In this document: positions 19,306-27,914 of the stretch, one piece after another | How the letters are laid out: each line of letters begins with the position of its first letter | Position numbering within the stretch: position 1 is the stretch's first letter | Assembly: GCA_965226375.1 (NCBI GenBank) | Contig: CBDDCX010000008.1 | Coordinates: forward strand, 1,600,001-1,664,000 | Length of the DNA: 64,000 bases | Direction: 5' to 3' | Origin: Longimicrobiales bacterium | GTDB lineage: Bacteria; Gemmatimonadota; Gemmatimonadetes; Longimicrobiales; Gaopeijiaceae | Notes under the pieces: generated by a model | Seen by the model: the letters and a program-made list of their open reading frames with translations, nothing else | Told to the model about the DNA's origin: nothing | Databases searched by the model: none | Program-made: the position numbers and the translations under genes

Positions 19306-21195
19306 GTGACACGCGCCACCACTCCACGCGGGGCTCTGGTCCTTTCCGCCATGCTCGTGGGACTCATTCTGGCTGCCCCTTCAAGTCTGTCCGGCCAAGA
19401 GGCGAATCCCGACTCCCTCGATCTCCTGGCCAAGGCCAAGGACGTCCAGGCGAGGTTCGAGCGGTACCGCGAGCAGCGGATTCCTCCCGAGCTGGCCACA
19501 TACGGCGGGCGCGGCTGCGACGATCTCGTGGGTCGTTTCTGCCTTCGTTTCGGGAACGGTGAAGACGACGACGAATGGATGGTGCCCGAAGAACCCGTGG
19601 AGTTCGGGATGGCGCGGGTACAGGTCCTCAGGGACCTGGCAGAGGTCGGAAAGGAGATCCCGGGCGACTCGTGGGTCTTGGGCCAGCGGGTCTACTACAT
19701 GGGTGAGGTAGGCAACTGGTCGGAGGCCGAAAACCTGATCCGTCGTTGCAGCGGCGAGCAATGGTGGTGCACGGCGCTCTTCGGCTACGTGAAGCACTCG
19801 CAGGGGGATTGGGTGTTCGCCGCAGAGATCTTCGACCGGGCGATCCAGCAGATGACGCCCGAAGAGGCGGAGCGGTTCCGCACCCCCACGTACCTGTTGG
19901 ATCCCGGAGCGATGGACGTCTACGAGGAGTACGAGGACAAGGAGGCCGCCGAGGAGCGGCTTTGGCTCCTGTCGGACCCGCTCTACATGATCGAGGGCAA
20001 CGACCGCAAGACCGAGCAGTACGCGCGGCAGGTGTTGATCCGGATGCGTGGAGAGGCGGAAAACGCTTATGGGGTTGAGTGGGGTGACGACATCGAGCAG
20101 CTCACGCTCCGCTACGGTGCGGAAAGGGCGTGGGAACGCGTAAAGTCAATCGGGAGGCAGGGTCTGCAGGACACGCGCACCATCGTGGGCCGGCATCATC
20201 CGAAGAGCAAGGAATTCCTTCCGCCCAAGGAAGGTCTGATGGATCCCGCTGAGGTGGCGGCGGGAGACTGGACCATCGGAGAGATTCGGCCGTGGACCGG
20301 GTACGCGCCTCCATATGCGCCCGACTTCGATCCACTCGAGACTCAGGTGGCCCGCTTCAGACGGGGTGACTCGCTCCTGGTGGTCGGGGCCTTCGCCCCG
20401 GCGGTCGAAGATGTACCGGTGGACGACAGGCGACAGACGAACCGAAATCCGAGGGTCGTCAACGCAGGCGCTCCCCGTAACGAGACTCGAAGCGACCGGC
20501 AGGCGAGGCTGAACCCCTTCGGACAACGCGTCGAGGTGCCGCAGCCGTTCATGCCTGTTGAACCCGAGCCCGAGGGGCCGGTCCGATCGGCACTTTTCCT
20601 GATCGAAACGGAAGGCGGCGATCGACACGAGGTCCTCGGTGAGGGTCCCGAGGGTGTGTTCCAGCTGCAGGTCGACAACGGGCGATACATCATCGGTGTC
20701 GAGGCGTTCAGCGAGAGCGCCAAACAAGCGTGGAGAGATCGGCACGGACTCTGGCAGGACGACATCGTTCCGGGCCTGGCCGCGGTCTCGGATCTGCTGA
20801 TTCTCAAGGGTGGCGGTGAGCTGCCCGAGACCCTGGATGAGGCGCTGCCGACGGTCATGGCGGCGACGCGCATTCGGGCCGGGGAGGCCTTCAAGATTGC
20901 TTGGGAGCTGTACGGGCTGCGTATCGGTGAGTCCGCGAGCGTGCGCATCGGCGTGGACCAGGGGGGACAGGGCCTCTTGCGTAGGCTCGGCGCCTTCTTG
21001 CGGGTTCTGGAGCCCGACGCGCCGGTGGTCATGACCTACGAAGATGCGGGCCCCGACGTGCTCGGCACTTTGTTCCGTGCGGTCCAGCTCAACTTGCCAG
21101 ACCTGGAGCCCGGAGAGTATACCCTCTCGGTGGAGATCGAGCTCGCCGGACGCGAGCCCATGGTCGTGGCACGGCCGATCATCATCGTTCCATGA
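19306..21195 (+). CDS. Exported GWxTD-like domain protein
   Basis: AGGAG RBS before GTG 19306, signal peptide, LW..SDPLY...NDR.TE..AR....WGDD....LRYG. Confidence 0.6.
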   Translation: MTRATTPRGALVLSAMLVGLILAAPSSLSGQEANPDSLDLLAKAKDVQARFERYREQRIPPELATYGGRGCDDLVGRFCLRFGNGEDDDEWMVPEEPVEFGMARVQVLRDLAEVGKEIPGDSWVLGQRVYYMGEVGNWSEAENLIRRCSGEQWWCTALFGYVKHSQGDWVFAAEIFDRAIQQMTPEEAERFRTPTYLLDPGAMDVYEEYEDKEAAEERLWLLSDPLYMIEGNDRKTEQYARQVLIRMRGEAENAYGVEWGDDIEQLTLRYGAERAWERVKSIGRQGLQDTRTIVGRHHPKSKEFLPPKEGLMDPAEVAAGDWTIGEIRPWTGYAPPYAPDFDPLETQVARFRRGDSLLVVGAFAPAVEDVPVDDRRQTNRNPRVVNAGAPRNETRSDRQARLNPFGQRVEVPQPFMPVEPEPEGPVRSALFLIETEGGDRHEVLGEGPEGVFQLQVDNGRYIIGVEAFSESAKQAWRDRHGLWQDDIVPGLAAVSDLLILKGGGELPETLDEALPTVMAATRIRAGEAFKIAWELYGLRIGESASVRIGVDQGGQGLLRRLGAFLRVLEPDAPVVMTYEDAGPDVLGTLFRAVQLNLPDLEPGEYTLSVEIELAGREPMVVARPIIIVP

Positions 21196-21201
21196 GGGTG
21201 C

Positions 21202-21765
21202 ATGAAAATACGGCTCTACGCTCAGCCCCCCGGGCGAGCCTCCATGCTCATCGAGGTGGACCTCCCGGAGGGTGACGAGACTGACCCGGTAAAGCTCAAG
21301 TGCTTCAGCCCGCCCCCCAACGATCAAGCCGAGATCGCTCAGTACGGTGGAGCCAAAGCCTGGGCCATCACCCTCACCGACGAAGACGTGGCGAGCCTGC
21401 AACGGCTGTCGTCGGACGTGCGGATCGTCCCATTCGGTGATGCGAAGCCGCGGGCTGGCGGCTGGCCGGTGGAACTCTCCTTCGCATCGGGGCAGGCCGA
21501 AGTACGGCTCAACTGGTGGATGCGGGCGCCCACGGAGTGGACCGTCGTCCAGGAGTTGATCACAGCCCTCATGAATCTGTCTGAGCGCGAGCGGTCTGGT
21601 GAATTGGATCCGCGCGAGCTCGACGGCGGTGTCGACGATGACGATGACCTGCAGGAGGCGGGGTCGGCTGCCGAGAGCGCGCGGGGAACCGGCGTGGGCA
21701 CGGGCACAGCCGGAGCGGCCCCCGGCCAGAAGAAGGGCTTCTTCGGACGGCTCTTAGGAGGATGA
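21202..21765 (+). CDS. Hypothetical protein with C-terminal amphipathic tail
   Basis: 187-aa ORF packed between neighbours, ending KKGFFGRLLGG. Confidence 0.6.
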   Translation: MKIRLYAQPPGRASMLIEVDLPEGDETDPVKLKCFSPPPNDQAEIAQYGGAKAWAITLTDEDVASLQRLSSDVRIVPFGDAKPRAGGWPVELSFASGQAEVRLNWWMRAPTEWTVVQELITALMNLSERERSGELDPRELDGGVDDDDDLQEAGSAAESARGTGVGTGTAGAAPGQKKGFFGRLLGG

Positions 21766-22190
21766 CCGGAACCGCGCTTATCACCGACCCCATGTCGGTG
21801 TTCGCCTTCCTGGCGGGCACGGTGGCGTTCATCTACTGGGTCTCCGGACTCCCCCGCTTCGAGAAGATCTTCGAGTATACGCCGCAGGTCATCTACGTGT
21901 ACTTCCTGCCCATGTTTGCCACGACCGTGGGCATCACTCCCTCGAGCTCACCGGCCTACGATTGGCTGACCCGGTACCTGCTGCCGTTCGCGTTGCTCCT
22001 CCTCATGATCTCCATCGACTTGAAGGCCATCTTGAAGCTCGGCCCGATCGCCCTGTTCATGGTACTGGCCGGAACGCTTGGGATCATCGTGGGCGGCCCC
22101 GTTTCATATGTCCTCTTCAAGGGATTCCTGCCGGCCGATGCGTGGACCGGATTCGCGGCACTCTCGGGAAGCTGGATCGGAGGGACGGCG
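21762..22190 (+). pseudogene. DUF819-family membrane protein, 3'-truncated
   Basis: Homology-like pattern (YLLPFALLLLMISIDL, ALSGSWIGGTA) stops at about 22190, after which the frame reads the antisense of another gene. Confidence 0.78.
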
Positions 22191-22510
22191 ACCCCGGTCC
22201 GTGCCACTCCGGCCTCATCCTCCGTGGCGACCTCCACACCTGCACCGATCTCGAAGTTTCGAAACAGGCCAGTTTCCAACTCGAAGAGCCCTCCGAATGC
22301 CTTGCGACCGGCTTCGGTCCATGCGCCCTCGAGGCCCACCTGGAACTCCCATTCCAGGTACTTCTTCGGGTACGCATCCGTGACGTGGAGAGGTCGATCG
22401 GGATCGAGCGATCGGAAGTCTTCCTGTGCCGCCCCATGGCGGGGTGACACCGTGAATACGGCACCGACCAGGAAAAACAACCAGGATCGGATCCTATGAG
22501 GGGGCCTCAT
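22190..22510 (-). pseudogene. Exported, probable outer-membrane beta-barrel protein, 3'-truncated
   Basis: ATG 22510 overlaps the upstream stop. Signal peptide (..HGAAQ), then EDFRSLDPDRPLHVTDAYP and beta-strand-like segments, broken at about 22190. Confidence 0.6.
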
Positions 22511-23634
22511 CTTCCACCCTCCGCCGGCCGCAAGGGCATCATGAGCTGGGTCATCGGGACCATTTGAGACTCGGGATGACCCTGCGGGAGCCACGACCCA
22601 TCCGGAAGTTCCGTGGGGACCCGCATCGCGCTCGGCGCCATGACGTGGTCTCCTCCCATCGGCAGCCCCGGCGCCACCACGAAGTCCTGAGTAGCATAGA
22701 GCTGATTCCGCAGCATCCGGTCGATCTCCGCCTCCTTTTGCTCCCGGCTGAGACGCTCGTCGACCATGATGTCGTTCGTGATGTCGTGCATCATGTGGAG
22801 GTTGTCGAAGATATGAGCGGCGGCCGGGAACATCTTCGAGAATCGGGGGGCCACCTCCGCGGTCAGCGGCATATAGTCGGGCGGGTCCACGAGCACCGAA
22901 TCGACGAAGAGTGTTATGACCCGGTCGAGCTCTCGGGCCTGTGCTTCGGGGGTGGGCTCCATGAGCGCCTCGTACACGGCGGCGTGATGCCAGTGATACG
23001 ACCACAGGATCCCGTTGATGCCGGGATACTTCCTGGGAAAGATCCCGGCCCACGCTCCTCCGCCCATCATCCAGCGATGACCGTATCCGCGCGTGGAGTA
23101 GGCTGCGTCGGGGGTCCCCAGGTAGTACGCGATGGCCCGCTCCCCCACCGCTCGCTTTTGCGTCACCTCCGGGTCGGTGAGGATATCGTAGAGTTGGCTG
23201 TGGAGGTGGTGGGTCCAATCCATGCTGCGGCCGGTCGGATACGCGATCTTGGTCCACTGGGGAGCGATGAGCTCGGCAGGCGGCCCGAACCTGGGGGGAT
23301 CGATGACCAACCGTCGAATACGCGCCTCCAACTCCGCGAACGCGTCTGTCGCGTCCTCGCCCATAGTGAGCGCCACTTCGTAGATCCCGAAGTGGGCCAC
23401 GTGAGCCGCGTAGAACGATCGCGCCGCGCTCGTGTGGGTGTCGTAGAACGCGAAGTTGTAACTAGCCGGGAGGTAAAACTGACCGTTGCGGGGGATCACA
23501 CCCGTGCATGAGGCCAACGTCACGGCCAGGAGAGCTGCCGCGGGGAGTCCCGACCTTTTGCGTAAGATACGCCGACATGGCGGATCTGCCGGGGTCTGAG
23601 AATCTAGAATTCTCAGGTGTTGTGGGTGCTGCAT
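22507..23634 (-). CDS. Uncharacterised His/Met-rich lipoprotein with four HxxH repeats (putative metal-binding)
   Basis: GAGGA RBS, LASC lipobox, motifs HVAH, HHLH, HWHH and HMMH, Met-rich C-terminus. Confidence 0.8.
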   Translation of the reverse strand: MQHPQHLRILDSQTPADPPCRRILRKRSGLPAAALLAVTLASCTGVIPRNGQFYLPASYNFAFYDTHTSAARSFYAAHVAHFGIYEVALTMGEDATDAFAELEARIRRLVIDPPRFGPPAELIAPQWTKIAYPTGRSMDWTHHLHSQLYDILTDPEVTQKRAVGERAIAYYLGTPDAAYSTRGYGHRWMMGGGAWAGIFPRKYPGINGILWSYHWHHAAVYEALMEPTPEAQARELDRVITLFVDSVLVDPPDYMPLTAEVAPRFSKMFPAAAHIFDNLHMMHDITNDIMVDERLSREQKEAEIDRMLRNQLYATQDFVVAPGLPMGGDHVMAPSAMRVPTELPDGSWLPQGHPESQMVPMTQLMMPLRPAEGGR

Positions 23635-23638
23635 GTGT

Positions 23639-23693
23639 TCCTCGTTCAGGCTTGGGCTCGAGAAAGTCGCTTCGAACTCAGCCCAAACGAGGA
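23639..23693 (-). promoter_or_regulatory. SD-sequestering RNA hairpin linking the leader ORF 3' end to the downstream RBS
   Basis: mRNA UCCUCGUU-UGGGCU (leader PRLG codons) is complementary to AGCCCA...AACGAGGA, which contains the SD 5 nt before ATG 23634. Confidence 0.75.
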
Positions 23694-24058
23694 GGGGGAG
23701 TCGCGGTCCCCGACTCGGGTGGCGTTATACCAACGAGGGACGTCACGGGAGTCGAGAAGACGGGCTTGACCTGCGCGACAAACCGGTCGGCCGTTGCCAC
23801 GACCGCCACTCCGCAGACCGCCATGGCGCACGTGTCCGCGTTCGGCCCCGGCGCGTCCGAGTGGTCACCATGATGGGGCGGACGTCCGTCGGATGCTGGC
23901 GACGTCGTCCCCGGTGCGCGGTGTCCCATGGCGGTCTGGTGATCCACGCTGATCTCTGACCGCGCCTCCGCGTCCACAGAGTGAACCTGGCAGAATGTCT
24001 GGCTGACCAAGAGGCCGACGTAGAACATCAGAGCCAATGAGGCCGTGTGTCTGACCAT
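23678..24058 (-). CDS. CutF/CruR-like leader protein (signal peptide, His-rich, CxxxxC, C-terminal PPPR)
   Basis: MVRHTASLALMFYVGLLVSQTFC..., PPHHGDH, CAMAVC, ending TPPESGTATPPPRLG*. Confidence 0.72.
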   Translation of the reverse strand: MVRHTASLALMFYVGLLVSQTFCQVHSVDAEARSEISVDHQTAMGHRAPGTTSPASDGRPPHHGDHSDAPGPNADTCAMAVCGVAVVATADRFVAQVKPVFSTPVTSLVGITPPESGTATPPPRLG

Positions 24059-24739: not shown

Positions 24740-25443
24740 TCATGCCGTCACCTCCCTCTGCGGTTCGGCCTCGACGAGTGTCTGCCAATGTGAGACCACG
24801 CGAGCCGCCAGGACCTGTCCCCCATCGACCAACGGCAGAGGCGGTTCGCCGTCTACGAGGTAATTCAGGTCGGTGCAGGCGATGAGGCCGACGTTGGCGC
24901 CCTCACCACTCAGTTCCGCCAGGAGCGCACCCAACAGCGCCCGCGGCTCGGCAAGGTCGGAGACGCCTCGAGGGCCCGTTGGTACAGACCTGAGTCACGA
25001 GTCGATCGCGTGGCCAGCAGTGCCACCGGCCCGGCGGCGCTCGGAACCGCATCCACGGCCGCTTCGACCATGTTGATCAGGGGCACCGTCACCCGGTCGA
25101 CCAAACCCTCGTAGTAGACGTGAGCCGAGTTACACGGCATGGCGATGAAGTCGACCCCCGTGCTCTCGAGCCACTCCAGTCCTCGGCCGATGGTCTCCTG
25201 AATTTCGGCGTGGTCCAACTCTCGATCGAAGTAGTAGGGAATGGGCCACGAGAAGACGACCATGGGCGGGTAGTCGGCTTCGTGCCGCGCGCCCAGCTGC
25301 TGCTGACACGCGTCCACCACGAAGTCCAGGAACGGCCCCGTGGAGCGAGCCCCCATACCCGCCAAGAGACCGATCGTGGGACGCCCCGACGGGTGCCGCT
25401 GAACCGCCGTGTGCGAAGGTTGTCCGTTCACAGCAGCATTCAT
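24740..25443 (-). pseudogene. Aspartate/glutamate racemase family, internal deletion with frameshift
   Basis: IGLLAGMG and MPCNSAH in one frame, second catalytic motif IACTDL in another frame (24740-24934). Junction near 24960. Confidence 0.8.
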
Positions 25444-25472
25444 TCGCACCCCTCCGTCCATTCTCAGAATGC

Positions 25473-27914
25473 TCAATCATCACGCAGGGCCACGGTCGGA
25501 CTCACCCGCGTGGCCCGTCTCGCCGGAAGATATGTGGCCAGGAGCACCACGGCAGCCAGCAGGCTGGAGACTGCACCGTAGACCAGCGGATCAAACGGCT
25601 CCACGGCGAGAAAGACGTCCGAGAGGAGGCTCGTGAGCGCTACCGAGGCCGACAGACCCAACCCGACCCCGGTCACGGCCAGGACAAAGGCCCCCCGGAG
25701 CACGCCGTGGATGATCTCGATGCCCTGAGCACCCAGCGCCATCCTCAATCCGAACTCCCGGGTGCGCCGTCCCACTGAATACACGGTCACGCCGTACACT
25801 CCGGTGGCGGCCAACAACAAACCGACGCCGGCGAAGATCAGCAGTACGAGTCCGTTGAACTGCACCCGGCCCAGCGACCGCGAGACGATGCTCTCACCGG
25901 TCGTCGTGCGGTAGGTGGTGGCCGACGGGCCGACTGCCGTAACGACCCGGCGAACGGCCGGGATCAGAGACTCGGCTGGGACCGAACCGCGGACTCCGAC
26001 TGCCATGACCGACACATAAGCGCCATCCGTCTGACTCATCGGATAATAAACCGCTGGCCGGATATCTTCCTCAAGGCCGCCGCTCCGCACGTCGTCGACG
26101 ACCCCCACGATCTCTAGCCAGGGCCGGTCCCGGCCGTACGAGCCCCGCTTGATCCGTCGGCCCAAGGCGGAACCGGCGGGCCAGAAGCGTTCCTCGAAAG
26201 CGCGACTCACGACAGCGACCCCGGGAGCGTCGAGCGCGTCCGTCTCCAAAAAGGTACGCCCCCCCAGAAGTGGTATGCCGGCGGCGCGGAAGAATCCGTG
26301 CGTGACGATCCTCCCGATGGCCGAGTGCGCCTGGTTCGGATCGGCGGGTGGCTCGTCCTCCACGGAATAGGCGTATCCCCAGTCCTCGTCGTCCAGGGGA
26401 AAGATATGGGCGCCCCCGGCGGCCTCCACCCCCGGCAAAGCCTCCATCCGTGCCAACACCTCGGTAAAGAACGCCACCCTGCCCTCATGGGTGCCCGCCA
26501 CCGAGCCGGGGGCCGACACACGCACCACAGCAAATCCGTCGGGCCTGAATCCAGGGTCGACGCTCTGCAGCTCCCGGAAGCCTCTCACCATGAGTCCGGC
26601 TCCGACGAGCAAGACCAGGCTCACGGCGACCTGCCCCATGACGAACGCGTCTCGGATACGGCGCTCGCGGCGACCCGCACTCGGGCTCCGTCCGCCCCTC
26701 CCAACGGCCTCGACGGCGGTGGTCCGGCCGCGCACCGCCGGGACGACGGAGAGCATCAACGCCACCGCAAAGGCCAGACCCACCGTCAATGCGAGCGAAC
26801 GTCCGGAGAACTCCACGCTGTCGAACGCGGCGCTGTCGACGGGGGCCAGAGTGAGGAGGGCCATCACACCCCAACCCGCGAGTGCCGTGCCCAAGACGGC
26901 TCCCAGGCCCGCAAGAATGACGTTCTCCGACAGGGACTGCCGGAACAAAGACGCCCGGGAAGCACCCAAAGCCGTCCGCACGGCCCTCTCCCAAGACTCT
27001 TCCTGCGCCCGCGCCAGGAGGAGGTTGGCCACATTGGCCACTGCGATGAGAAGCACGAACACCGAGGCGCCCAGGAGCGCCTGAAGCGGCGTCTGAAACG
27101 CCCCGACCTGGGCCTCCTGGAGGGTCACGGCTTCGATTCCGTTGTCGCCGAGGATCATCGGCTCGCGCTCGGCCAACCTTGCGGACACACGCCCGAACTC
27201 GGCCGCCAGGTCCGCCCGGCTCGCCCGATCTGCCAGCTTACCCACCATGATCAAGCTGCCCCAGGAAACCCACTCCCCCTCAGCGTAGTCGCGCCGCAGC
27301 AGGTTCACCCACACTTCGGCCCGCCCTGGAATACGCTGGCCCTGGGGAATCACCCCGACAATGGAAGCGGATTCGCCGGACACATCGAGCGACCGCCCCA
27401 GAACGGACCGGTCGCCACCATAACGCTGCCGCCAGACCGCCTCGCTGATCAACGCCACCCGATTATTCCCCTCAACCTCTTCTTGGGTGAAGGTAGGACC
27501 CAGGACCGGCTGAATCCCCAGAGCCGCAAAGCTGCCCGGCATCACCCGAGCGCCACTCATGCGCTGGGCGACTCCGTCCTCGAGCACGTCGAAATCTGTG
27601 GCGAAAAAGCCTGCCACAGACTCGAGCGCCTCGCTCTCCTCCGCGACGGCCATATAGGTGACGGGTGCCACCCAGAATCGTCGGTCAGGATCCTGACGGT
27701 CGAGGTTGAAACTGAAGATCTGGACCAAACGCTCTGCGTCTTCGAACGGCATCGCGTCCACGAGAACCGAACGAACCACCGAGTAGACCCCGGACGTCGC
27801 GCCGATCCCCGCCCCCAGGCACGCTATGATCACGATCGAGACCGCAGGCCGACGCGTGATCCTGCGGACCGCCAAACGGATATCGCTCCACACTTCATCG
27901 ATCCACTTCGTCAT
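25473..27914 (-). CDS. ADOP-type duplicated ABC permease (MacB/FtsX repeats)
   Basis: LGAGIGA, ANVANLLLAR, R.ALGASR, QVAVSLVLLVGAGL, RTREFGLRMALGA, PARRATRVSP. Confidence 0.92.
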   Translation of the reverse strand: MTKWIDEVWSDIRLAVRRITRRPAVSIVIIACLGAGIGATSGVYSVVRSVLVDAMPFEDAERLVQIFSFNLDRQDPDRRFWVAPVTYMAVAEESEALESVAGFFATDFDVLEDGVAQRMSGARVMPGSFAALGIQPVLGPTFTQEEVEGNNRVALISEAVWRQRYGGDRSVLGRSLDVSGESASIVGVIPQGQRIPGRAEVWVNLLRRDYAEGEWVSWGSLIMVGKLADRASRADLAAEFGRVSARLAEREPMILGDNGIEAVTLQEAQVGAFQTPLQALLGASVFVLLIAVANVANLLLARAQEESWERAVRTALGASRASLFRQSLSENVILAGLGAVLGTALAGWGVMALLTLAPVDSAAFDSVEFSGRSLALTVGLAFAVALMLSVVPAVRGRTTAVEAVGRGGRSPSAGRRERRIRDAFVMGQVAVSLVLLVGAGLMVRGFRELQSVDPGFRPDGFAVVRVSAPGSVAGTHEGRVAFFTEVLARMEALPGVEAAGGAHIFPLDDEDWGYAYSVEDEPPADPNQAHSAIGRIVTHGFFRAAGIPLLGGRTFLETDALDAPGVAVVSRAFEERFWPAGSALGRRIKRGSYGRDRPWLEIVGVVDDVRSGGLEEDIRPAVYYPMSQTDGAYVSVMAVGVRGSVPAESLIPAVRRVVTAVGPSATTYRTTTGESIVSRSLGRVQFNGLVLLIFAGVGLLLAATGVYGVTVYSVGRRTREFGLRMALGAQGIEIIHGVLRGAFVLAVTGVGLGLSASVALTSLLSDVFLAVEPFDPLVYGAVSSLLAAVVLLATYLPARRATRVSPTVALRDD

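Follow-up and report, generated by a model that had tools for sequence, protein, structure and literature searches.

A leader open reading frame (ORF) of 126 amino acids (aa) in a Longimicrobiales bacterium (phylum Gemmatimonadota) probably works as a CutF-type translational copper switch, which controls a two-part envelope module composed of a His-lined lipoprotein and a barrel. The DNA analysed, hereafter the window, is a stretch of 64,000 nucleotides (nt) from GenBank assembly GCA_965226375.1 (contig CBDDCX010000008.1, positions 1,600,001 to 1,664,000), and lies on contig C8 of genome G000 (4.2 Mb, 90% complete). The original prediction, made from the letters of the window, had proposed a ribosome-stalling leader of CutF/CruR-like logic in front of a metal-binding lipoprotein operon. 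The CutF half of this proposal is retained, with its short spacer, its stem occluding the Shine-Dalgarno (SD) sequence, its Cys motif and its PPP run, but the leader is not of the CruR type (CxxC, RAPP, a 162-nt spacer and Rho). The targets, which had been described as neither a multicopper oxidase nor a TonB receptor, are indeed neither: one is the His-lined lipoprotein, the other belongs to the COG4313/FapF barrels.

All the elements described earlier for the minus-strand leader ORF were seen in its sequence. Residues 8-22 are hydrophobic and are followed by C23, a His-rich linker (PPHHGDH), the motif CAMAVC (C77-x4-C82) and a Pro-rich C-terminus with PPP at 121-123, then RLG and the stop codon; the C-terminus reads TPPESGTATPPPRLG. 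The distance from C82 to the last Pro is 41 residues. PMC9973294 defines CutF-like proteins by a length below 150 aa, PP within the last 15 residues, a Sec signal and a same-strand gene within 1000 nt. With its 126 aa, its PPP at 121-123 and the next gene at 43 nt, the window leader falls inside the size, PP and position limits. As for export, it carries the hydrophobic segment, and an A-x-A-like site before a Cys was recognized by eye in many relatives. The CxxxC motif of the CutF prototype is absent: the window leader has C77-x4-C82 instead, and relatives have Cx4C, Cx5C or four-Cys variants. In the prototype, stalling is induced by Cu, is sensitive to elongation factor P (EF-P) and acts in cis; a gene for EF-P was found in the host genome.

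The occurrence of such leaders was examined with a filter that asked for two or more Cys located 33-70 residues before the C-terminus, for PP and no fewer than three Pro among the final 16 residues, and for an upstream hydrophobic stretch. The sets of loci (close, distant, genome and named-genome) overlap, and a few duplicates are left in the close and distant sets. A leader was found upstream in 35/56 close loci and in 16/28 distant barrel-first loci, against 2/3000 random positions. It heads the unit in 36/60 genome loci and is present in 41 of the 70 scorable named-genome loci, two of them in Nitrospinaceae. In the close clade the leader is followed by the lipoprotein gene and then the barrel gene; in most distant loci the barrel gene comes second and that of the His protein third. 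Since the leader stays first when lipoprotein and barrel swap order, it follows the head of the unit and not one particular gene. The upstream ORF with conserved Cys motif and PPP that was expected before relatives of the lipoprotein is thus present there, and before the swapped gene order as well. In the rest of the host genome (90% complete), queries taken from this module revealed no paralogue of the leader, the lipoprotein or the barrel.

The spacing between the Cys motif and the Pro run behaves as a ruler. In 43 of 44 dereplicated leaders the last Cys and the last Pro are separated by 41-44 aa (a count drawn from a narrow window; the unwindowed histogram peaks at the same place), whereas the distance from signal to Cys varies from 48 to 88 aa. 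In the replication set the spacing was 42-43 aa in 15 of 17 new leaders. According to PMC9426467, a conserved Cys-to-Pro spacing is a functionally tested hallmark of CruR, in which 45 residues separate the two motifs; the spacing in the leaders described here is somewhat shorter. In distant leaders the Pro runs are kept with non-CCT codons. The penultimate Pro codon is CCT in 33/44 leaders of the first set, but this bias failed to replicate in the 17 new leaders and was discarded as a signature of the whole family.

Two further groups of leader loci were noted. In Nitrospinaceae (L230:4585-4857 and L266:4598-4870), and hence outside Gemmatimonadota, the barrel/His-protein pair is again preceded by a leader. 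It is 90 aa long, begins with a signal-like segment, contains four Cys and ends in YHPPK, and its hairpin is predicted to form within the spacer and not to involve the Pro codons. At L146, L148, L155 and L164 the unit consists of leader, barrel, His protein, a DUF305/CopM-like protein and a choice-of-anchor-B-like protein; the spacers there exceed 125 nt where the start could be placed and show little SD occlusion, so that these units may be regulated differently.

Folding of the leader/spacer region gave the expected result, a stable 21-bp hairpin (-30.4 kcal/mol, z -3.84; none of 200 shuffles equally stable) that buries the GAGGA SD of the lipoprotein gene, with a stem running through the leader's stop codon. 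The 5' arm extends from the penultimate Pro codon through the stop codon; the 3' arm is the 3' part of the 43-nt spacer and ends in GAGGA. The pairing proposed earlier between leader end and spacer does bury the SD, but in the minimum free energy (MFE) fold GGGCU pairs with AGCCU(G) and not with AGCCCA. Most close relatives have GAGGAGG at the equivalent place.

Cognate pairing of leader tail and SD was compared with swapped pairing. The cognate duplex was stronger, -22.4 versus -16.0 kcal/mol (within-clade permutation p 0.005, 1e-4 and <5e-5), and this was replicated in 17 new leaders (-19.2 versus -14.6 kcal/mol, p 1e-5), the p-values being overstated as the loci are kin. The first-set test includes L095 with a mis-picked start codon; the test on opening of the ribosome-binding site (RBS) uses the corrected start. 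In the latter, a ribosome footprint was masked in silico at loci with 35-100-nt spacers. In 27/40 leader loci, as against 17/179 control gene pairs, the RBS became easier to open by more than 3 kcal/mol once a footprint was placed at the last Pro; in the window the cost fell from 12.5 to 3.2 kcal/mol. The covarying anti-SD hairpin anticipated in the original prediction was found in part, the cognate tail/SD pairing being replicated but the covariation weak (3/16 pairs). The hairpin is kept in function more than in sequence. An intrinsic terminator was also considered and rejected (no U tract, 0 sites), and a search for a sigma-70-like promoter at the locus found none.

Table. Features of the leader/lipoprotein/barrel locus, in window coordinates.
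Feature	Position	Strand	Basis
Leader ORF, 126 aa, CutF/DUF2946-like	23678..24058	minus	sequence and conservation in relatives
Cys motif CAMAVC, putative periplasmic metal sensor	23813..23830	minus	sequence; spacing kept across relatives
PPP codons CCC CCT CCT, putative pause site	23690..23698	minus	last two codons provide the anti-SD
mRNA hairpin, 21 bp, no U tract	23639..23693	minus	MFE fold; consensus fold in 17 close relatives
Shine-Dalgarno GAGGA of lipoprotein gene	23639..23643	minus	within hairpin 3' arm
His-lined helical lipoprotein, 375 aa	22507..23634	minus	lipobox C43, two-fold repeat, conserved His, Met-rich tail
5' remnant (~107 codons) of 12-stranded COG4313/FapF-type (PF13557) barrel gene	22189..22510	minus	identity to relatives
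5' remnant of convergent DUF819 gene	21762..22189	plus	Pfam positions 1-130 of 379

The first target of the switch carries the lipobox LASC43 and, in the window copy, four HxxH motifs (78/81, 142/145, 214/217 and 280/283). Its earlier description as a four-HxxH lipoprotein is accurate for the window, but the four motifs are confined to the close clade: in a broad alignment of 40 sequences, position 78 is D in 23 and position 217 is Q in 26. Six His (H81, H142, H145, H214, H280 and H283, three per repeat) are kept in 36-39 of these 40 homologues. C43 is kept in 53/59 close homologues and is mostly missing in distant ones. The two halves of the protein align with each other (probability 99.4%, E 6e-22), and the AF2 model is helical with a predicted local distance difference test (pLDDT) score of 87.7. 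A total of 548 homologues of similar length were found, the named ones belonging to Gemmatimonadota, and 108 of 401 genomes of the phylum have matches, a tally which counts two unpublished genomes (G096 and G192) that enter no other result. The nearest named-genome locus, L189, is in a Longimicrobiales metagenome-assembled genome (90% identity). Very distant relatives, 26-28% identical across the C-terminal half, are found at L013, L014, L017 and L019 with neither barrel nor leader beside them, and those inspected have lost several His.

Searches for a known relative of the lipoprotein gave little. Pfam and NCBIfam placed neither leader nor lipoprotein in a family at cut-off. The PDB sequence search gave no match with the single protein and two weak ones with a profile (E 0.094 and 2); Foldseek with the model gave none at E<=0.001, and the ESM Atlas returned hypothetical clusters alone. 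In VIA the best Z was 4.5 among 48,161 chains, a result that does not by itself prove a new fold. The type-3 dicopper proteins tyrosinase and haemocyanin, which have two 3-His sites in a four-helix bundle of the tyrosinase fold, were considered as a possible comparison; the lipoprotein has 3+3 conserved His in a two-fold repeat.

The second target is best seen in relatives. In the window the third gene, described earlier as an exported beta-strand-rich protein coupled by ATGA, does overlap the lipoprotein gene at ATGA, but is a deletion remnant and not an intact gene (see below). The intact barrel of locus L129 was modelled with 12 strands (pLDDT 89.9) and scores 25.1 bits against PF13557 (cut-off 22). 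Its fold matches FapF with Z 24.8 (root-mean-square deviation, rmsd, 2.2; 218 residues aligned) and PDB 4rl8 with Z 22.4 (rmsd 2.6; 218 aligned). R138-x-H140-x-N142 of strand 7, D19 and E29 are invariant. The barrel accompanies the His protein at 59/60 genome loci, and the two are fused in three loci (two distinct genomes) and in several database proteins.

A model of the L129 barrel/lipoprotein complex scored 0.80, while the best of three controls scored 0.00; the mark used is reached by 116/157 solved and 2/215 mismatched pairs, and is approximate here as the alignments were self-supplied. The runs share at least 77% of contacts, and the partner pLDDT is at least 80. On the barrel, the contacts involve turns 58-59, 94-97, 132-136, 166-171 and 200-204 and both termini. 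As these are short turns and termini in the strand list, the lipoprotein is read, in this model, as contacting the periplasmic face of the barrel, in agreement with the barrel-to-His-protein order in the fusions. The modelling supports binding of barrel and lipoprotein to each other.

With regard to the metal, the neighbours of the unit were considered. Co-oriented copper genes occur at 12/60 genome loci, namely CPH-type Cu-ATPase at six, DUF305/CopM-like at four and CusA/CzcA at two; the ATPase is directly downstream and CusA/CzcA upstream. Those copper neighbours that were tested score above the cut-off of TIGR01511 or TIGR00914, and CPH and YN are present in both of the ATPases inspected. 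CopC-CopD and CopI-like cupredoxins are neighbours at single loci. In 7/24 leaderless loci versus 1/36 leader loci, the place immediately upstream is occupied by a repressor of the CsoR family or by a divergent two-component system of the heavy-metal type; this count is biased, the regulator queries having been taken from leaderless loci. Exporters, genes of the CopM, CopI and CopCD types, and regulators of the CsoR or metal two-component type are normally tied to induction by excess metal. Because the neighbours and regulators are of this sort, copper induction is the most likely reading. Separately, a possible link to nitrous-oxide reduction was observed at L051:1876-5268 and L073:1933-5327: L051 has NosR-like (FMN_bind + Fer4_5) and ApbE genes divergently upstream of the leader, and L073 has ORFs of the same size.

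The switch may be pictured as follows. The leader would be exported co-translationally via Sec, and when PPP reaches the active site of the ribosome the Cys motif, 41-46 residues upstream, would just have emerged in the periplasm, as the fixed spacing suggests. Copper binding to the Cys motif would lengthen the pause, by analogy with CutF. The paused ribosome is predicted in silico to cover the 5' arm of the hairpin, i.e. the last codons of the leader, freeing the SD. The lipoprotein would then be translated, followed by the barrel through ATGA coupling, and would probably cap the periplasmic face of the 12-stranded barrel, as in the complex model. Through its six His the lipoprotein may bind copper, and the pair may buffer periplasmic copper or pass it outward.

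Besides the kinship of the loci and the bias in the regulator queries, a number of observations weigh against this reading. The opening cost of the free window RBS is unremarkable, with 28% of the 179 control pairs as high; covariation in the 17 close relatives is weak (3/16 pairs, term -0.24); and most loci with spacers above 110 nt show little or no SD occlusion. The hairpin is compatible with either sign of regulation. No leader was detected in 24/60 genome loci, and 48/60 are without a co-oriented copper gene, judged with a small query set. The two-component systems best match TIGR01386/TIGR01387 but fall below the cut-offs. CCT at the penultimate Pro was found in 5/17 new leaders, against a genome background of 364/1791. 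The barrel of the window itself is broken, cut after about three strands. The window leader has Cx4C and not CxxxC, and gives no hit to Pfam DUF2946 (PF11162); among relatives DUF2946 is sub-threshold in 6/44 (best E 0.014). CopL_fam (NF033807) is also missed, at 16.3 bits (E 0.012) against a cut-off of 40, with a match spanning residues 15-122.

The sign of regulation could be the opposite, as in CruR: the ribosome would pause by default, metal would relieve the pause, the hairpin would close, and the pair would serve copper uptake or supply when copper is scarce. According to PMC9426467, pausing at CruR takes place in the absence of Cu, and the operon that CruR heads serves uptake; the title of PMC9210255 calls PcoB an uptake facilitator. 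The fold relatives of the barrel are channels, NosR-like and ApbE genes stand divergently upstream in L051, and the hairpin does not fix the sign. We nevertheless hold uptake to be improbable, as the co-oriented exporters (CPH Cu-ATPases and CusA/CzcA) and the CopM-like, CopI-like and CopC-CopD neighbours, together with the CsoR-type or metal two-component regulators at leaderless loci, belong to genes normally induced by excess metal. CruR moreover uses Rho and a 162-nt spacer, as PMC9973294 states, and the spacer here is 43 nt. A response to a metal other than copper (Zn, Ni, Co, Cd or Ag), or to the redox state of periplasmic thiols, is likewise unlikely for the leader. The nearest Atlas clusters do include CzcI-like proteins, TIGR00914 does not separate CusA from CzcA, the ATPase of L167 scores higher as a Cd/Zn type, linker and target are both His-rich, the CutF preprint (bioRxiv 10.1101/2025.02.05.636593) proposes competing disulfides, and the leader has a third Cys, C23. 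Yet the six directly downstream ATPases form one close group, whose tested members score above the cut-off for Cu-ATPases and in which CPH and YN are present in both proteins inspected; the CopM-, CopI- and CopCD-like neighbours bear copper-specific names; and Cys-motif leaders mostly precede Cu genes in PMC9973294.

A further possible arrangement would involve no sensing at all, with the leader a small periplasmic metal-binding protein, the hairpin only coupling translation of the next gene to termination of the leader, and the Pro run a by-product of the anti-SD. Any terminating ribosome would open the 5' arm too, CCU CC is itself an anti-SD, and many loci are without a leader. The ruler makes this very unlikely: Cys-to-Pro is held at 41-44 aa although the sequence in between cannot be aligned, as against a variation of 40 aa in the N-terminal linker. 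PMC9426467 reports a functional test of this kind of fixed spacing in CruR, and distant leaders keep their Pro runs with non-CCT codons. Induction by copper through a CutF-type switch remains the reading we prefer.

In its architecture the leader is close to CutF of the cutFOG operon of Rhodobacter capsulatus, as described in PMC9973294: fewer than 150 aa, an export signal (putative here), a Cys motif some 45 residues upstream of the PPP at the C-terminus, an extra Cys near the mature N-terminus, a short spacer and a stem-loop over the next SD. The two differ in the Cys motif (CxxxC in CutF; Cx4C here, with Cx5C or CxxC-x4-C-x5-C in relatives) and in the stem-loop, called intergenic in the CutF figure legend, whereas here the anti-SD arm is formed by the last codons of the leader. 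The targets of CutF are a Tat-exported multicopper oxidase and its chaperone; here, in the phylum Gemmatimonadota, they are the His-lined lipoprotein and the barrel. CruR (Bp2923, DUF2946/PF11162) of Bordetella pertussis, as described in PMC9426467, resembles the leader in being the first gene, in its export signal (putative in the leader), in the outer-membrane protein downstream and in a Cys motif whose distance to a Pro motif close to the C-terminus is conserved. It differs in having CxxC, RAPP, a 162-nt spacer, Rho termination and a TonB-dependent transporter, as opposed to 43 nt, SD occlusion and another barrel. Its marks CxxC and C-terminal RAPP are missing in the window leader, which has Cx4C and TPPPR instead.

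Leaders of the CopL (NF033807)/CzcI-like kind share a weak full-length profile match, neighbourhood in the ESM Atlas (the nearest clusters of the leader are DUF2946/CzcI-like, 0.95-0.96) and a place upstream of metal-handling genes, but the downstream genes are not the same; the NF033807 profile matches 1/44 leaders at E<=1. The leader profile of this study, a hidden Markov model, was built without L104 and L141. As the DUF2946 and CopL cut-offs are missed and the motif is Cx4C, the leader is placed outside the DUF2946 family, although it probably works like CutF. On the effector side, identity of the barrel to COG4313/FapF barrels (PF13557; PDB 5o65, 4rl8) is 13-14%, and it differs from them by its invariant R138-x-H140-x-N142, D19 and E29, its constant His-protein partner and its copper context. 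PcoB/CopB with PcoA is a functional analogue, PMC12509749 describing an outer-membrane barrel and a periplasmic His/Met-rich copper partner in one operon. PcoB ranks 46th as a fold match (Z 13.7, rmsd 3.9, 185 aligned), far below FapF, and the partner here, unlike PcoA, is not a multicopper oxidase.

The literature search found no paper joining Gemmatimonad with DUF2946 or describing this leader/lipoprotein/barrel module, and none tying COG4313 to copper with a constant His-protein partner. Three supplements of PMC9973294 gave no match for Gemmatimonad or PF13557 (the File S1 neighbour table lay outside this search); the leaders may be among the 5,334 proteins of the list in that paper. As a device the switch is known and only its sequence family is new; the novel part is the effector pair. 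Few systems, most of them Proteobacterial, have so far served to test leaders of the CutF/CruR type. The device is now extended to Gemmatimonadota, where the Cys motif differs and the pause codons double as anti-SD. The leader points to an unannotated effector pair whose barrel class was not tied to metals in the literature searched and is predicted to be capped by the lipoprotein. If the pair handles copper, it would add a route across the outer membrane, a still unsettled step in copper movement. A wider proposal, which we advance tentatively and with some doubt, is that the lipoprotein on the periplasmic mouth of the barrel represents an outer-membrane copper machine of a new class. It would act as a port for exit or capture that needs no pump, and might contain, within a new fold, a redox site of two copper ions. 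Such machines would be present in about one quarter of the Gemmatimonadota genomes sampled, as well as in some relatives of Nitrospina, and would be switched on interchangeably by a stalling leader, CsoR or a two-component system.

The barrel gene of the window ends in a deletion. Nucleotide identity to the nearest relatives, L052 and L189, ends at 22189, and the remnant matches residues 15-113 of the 278-aa intact barrel. Beyond 22189 the barrel ORF reads into the antisense of a DUF819 gene, itself cut at 130 of 379, so that the two remnants are joined tail-to-tail. The overlapping antisense ORFs 21762-22499 (plus, 245 aa) and 21956-22510 (minus, 184 aa) are chimeras made by the deletion, and neither tail is truly coding. 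Contigs of runs X1 (possibly the source sample) and X5 (from another study, depth 2) span the join without differences; those of X7 depart from the window sequence at 22189 on both sides, and those of X3 break there. Misassembly as the sole cause was rejected, since X1 and X5 contigs span the join, which is read as a real deletion in some strains. Since this genome has a truncated barrel gene, the switch and the lipoprotein are all that can still function in it, and the window copy is a poor one for testing the pair.

Upstream of the leader, the Asp/Glu racemase gene (24742-25476, minus) carries a frameshift near 24960; its ORF ends at 24910, and GLIACTDLN continues in another frame. Together with the deletion at 22189, this frameshift suggests local gene decay. 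A short stretch before a GNAT gene resembles the start of a short-chain dehydrogenase. A 79% nucleotide match between window positions 21001-21191 and C8:85356-85539 of the same genome was found at the 3' end of a 678-aa gene.

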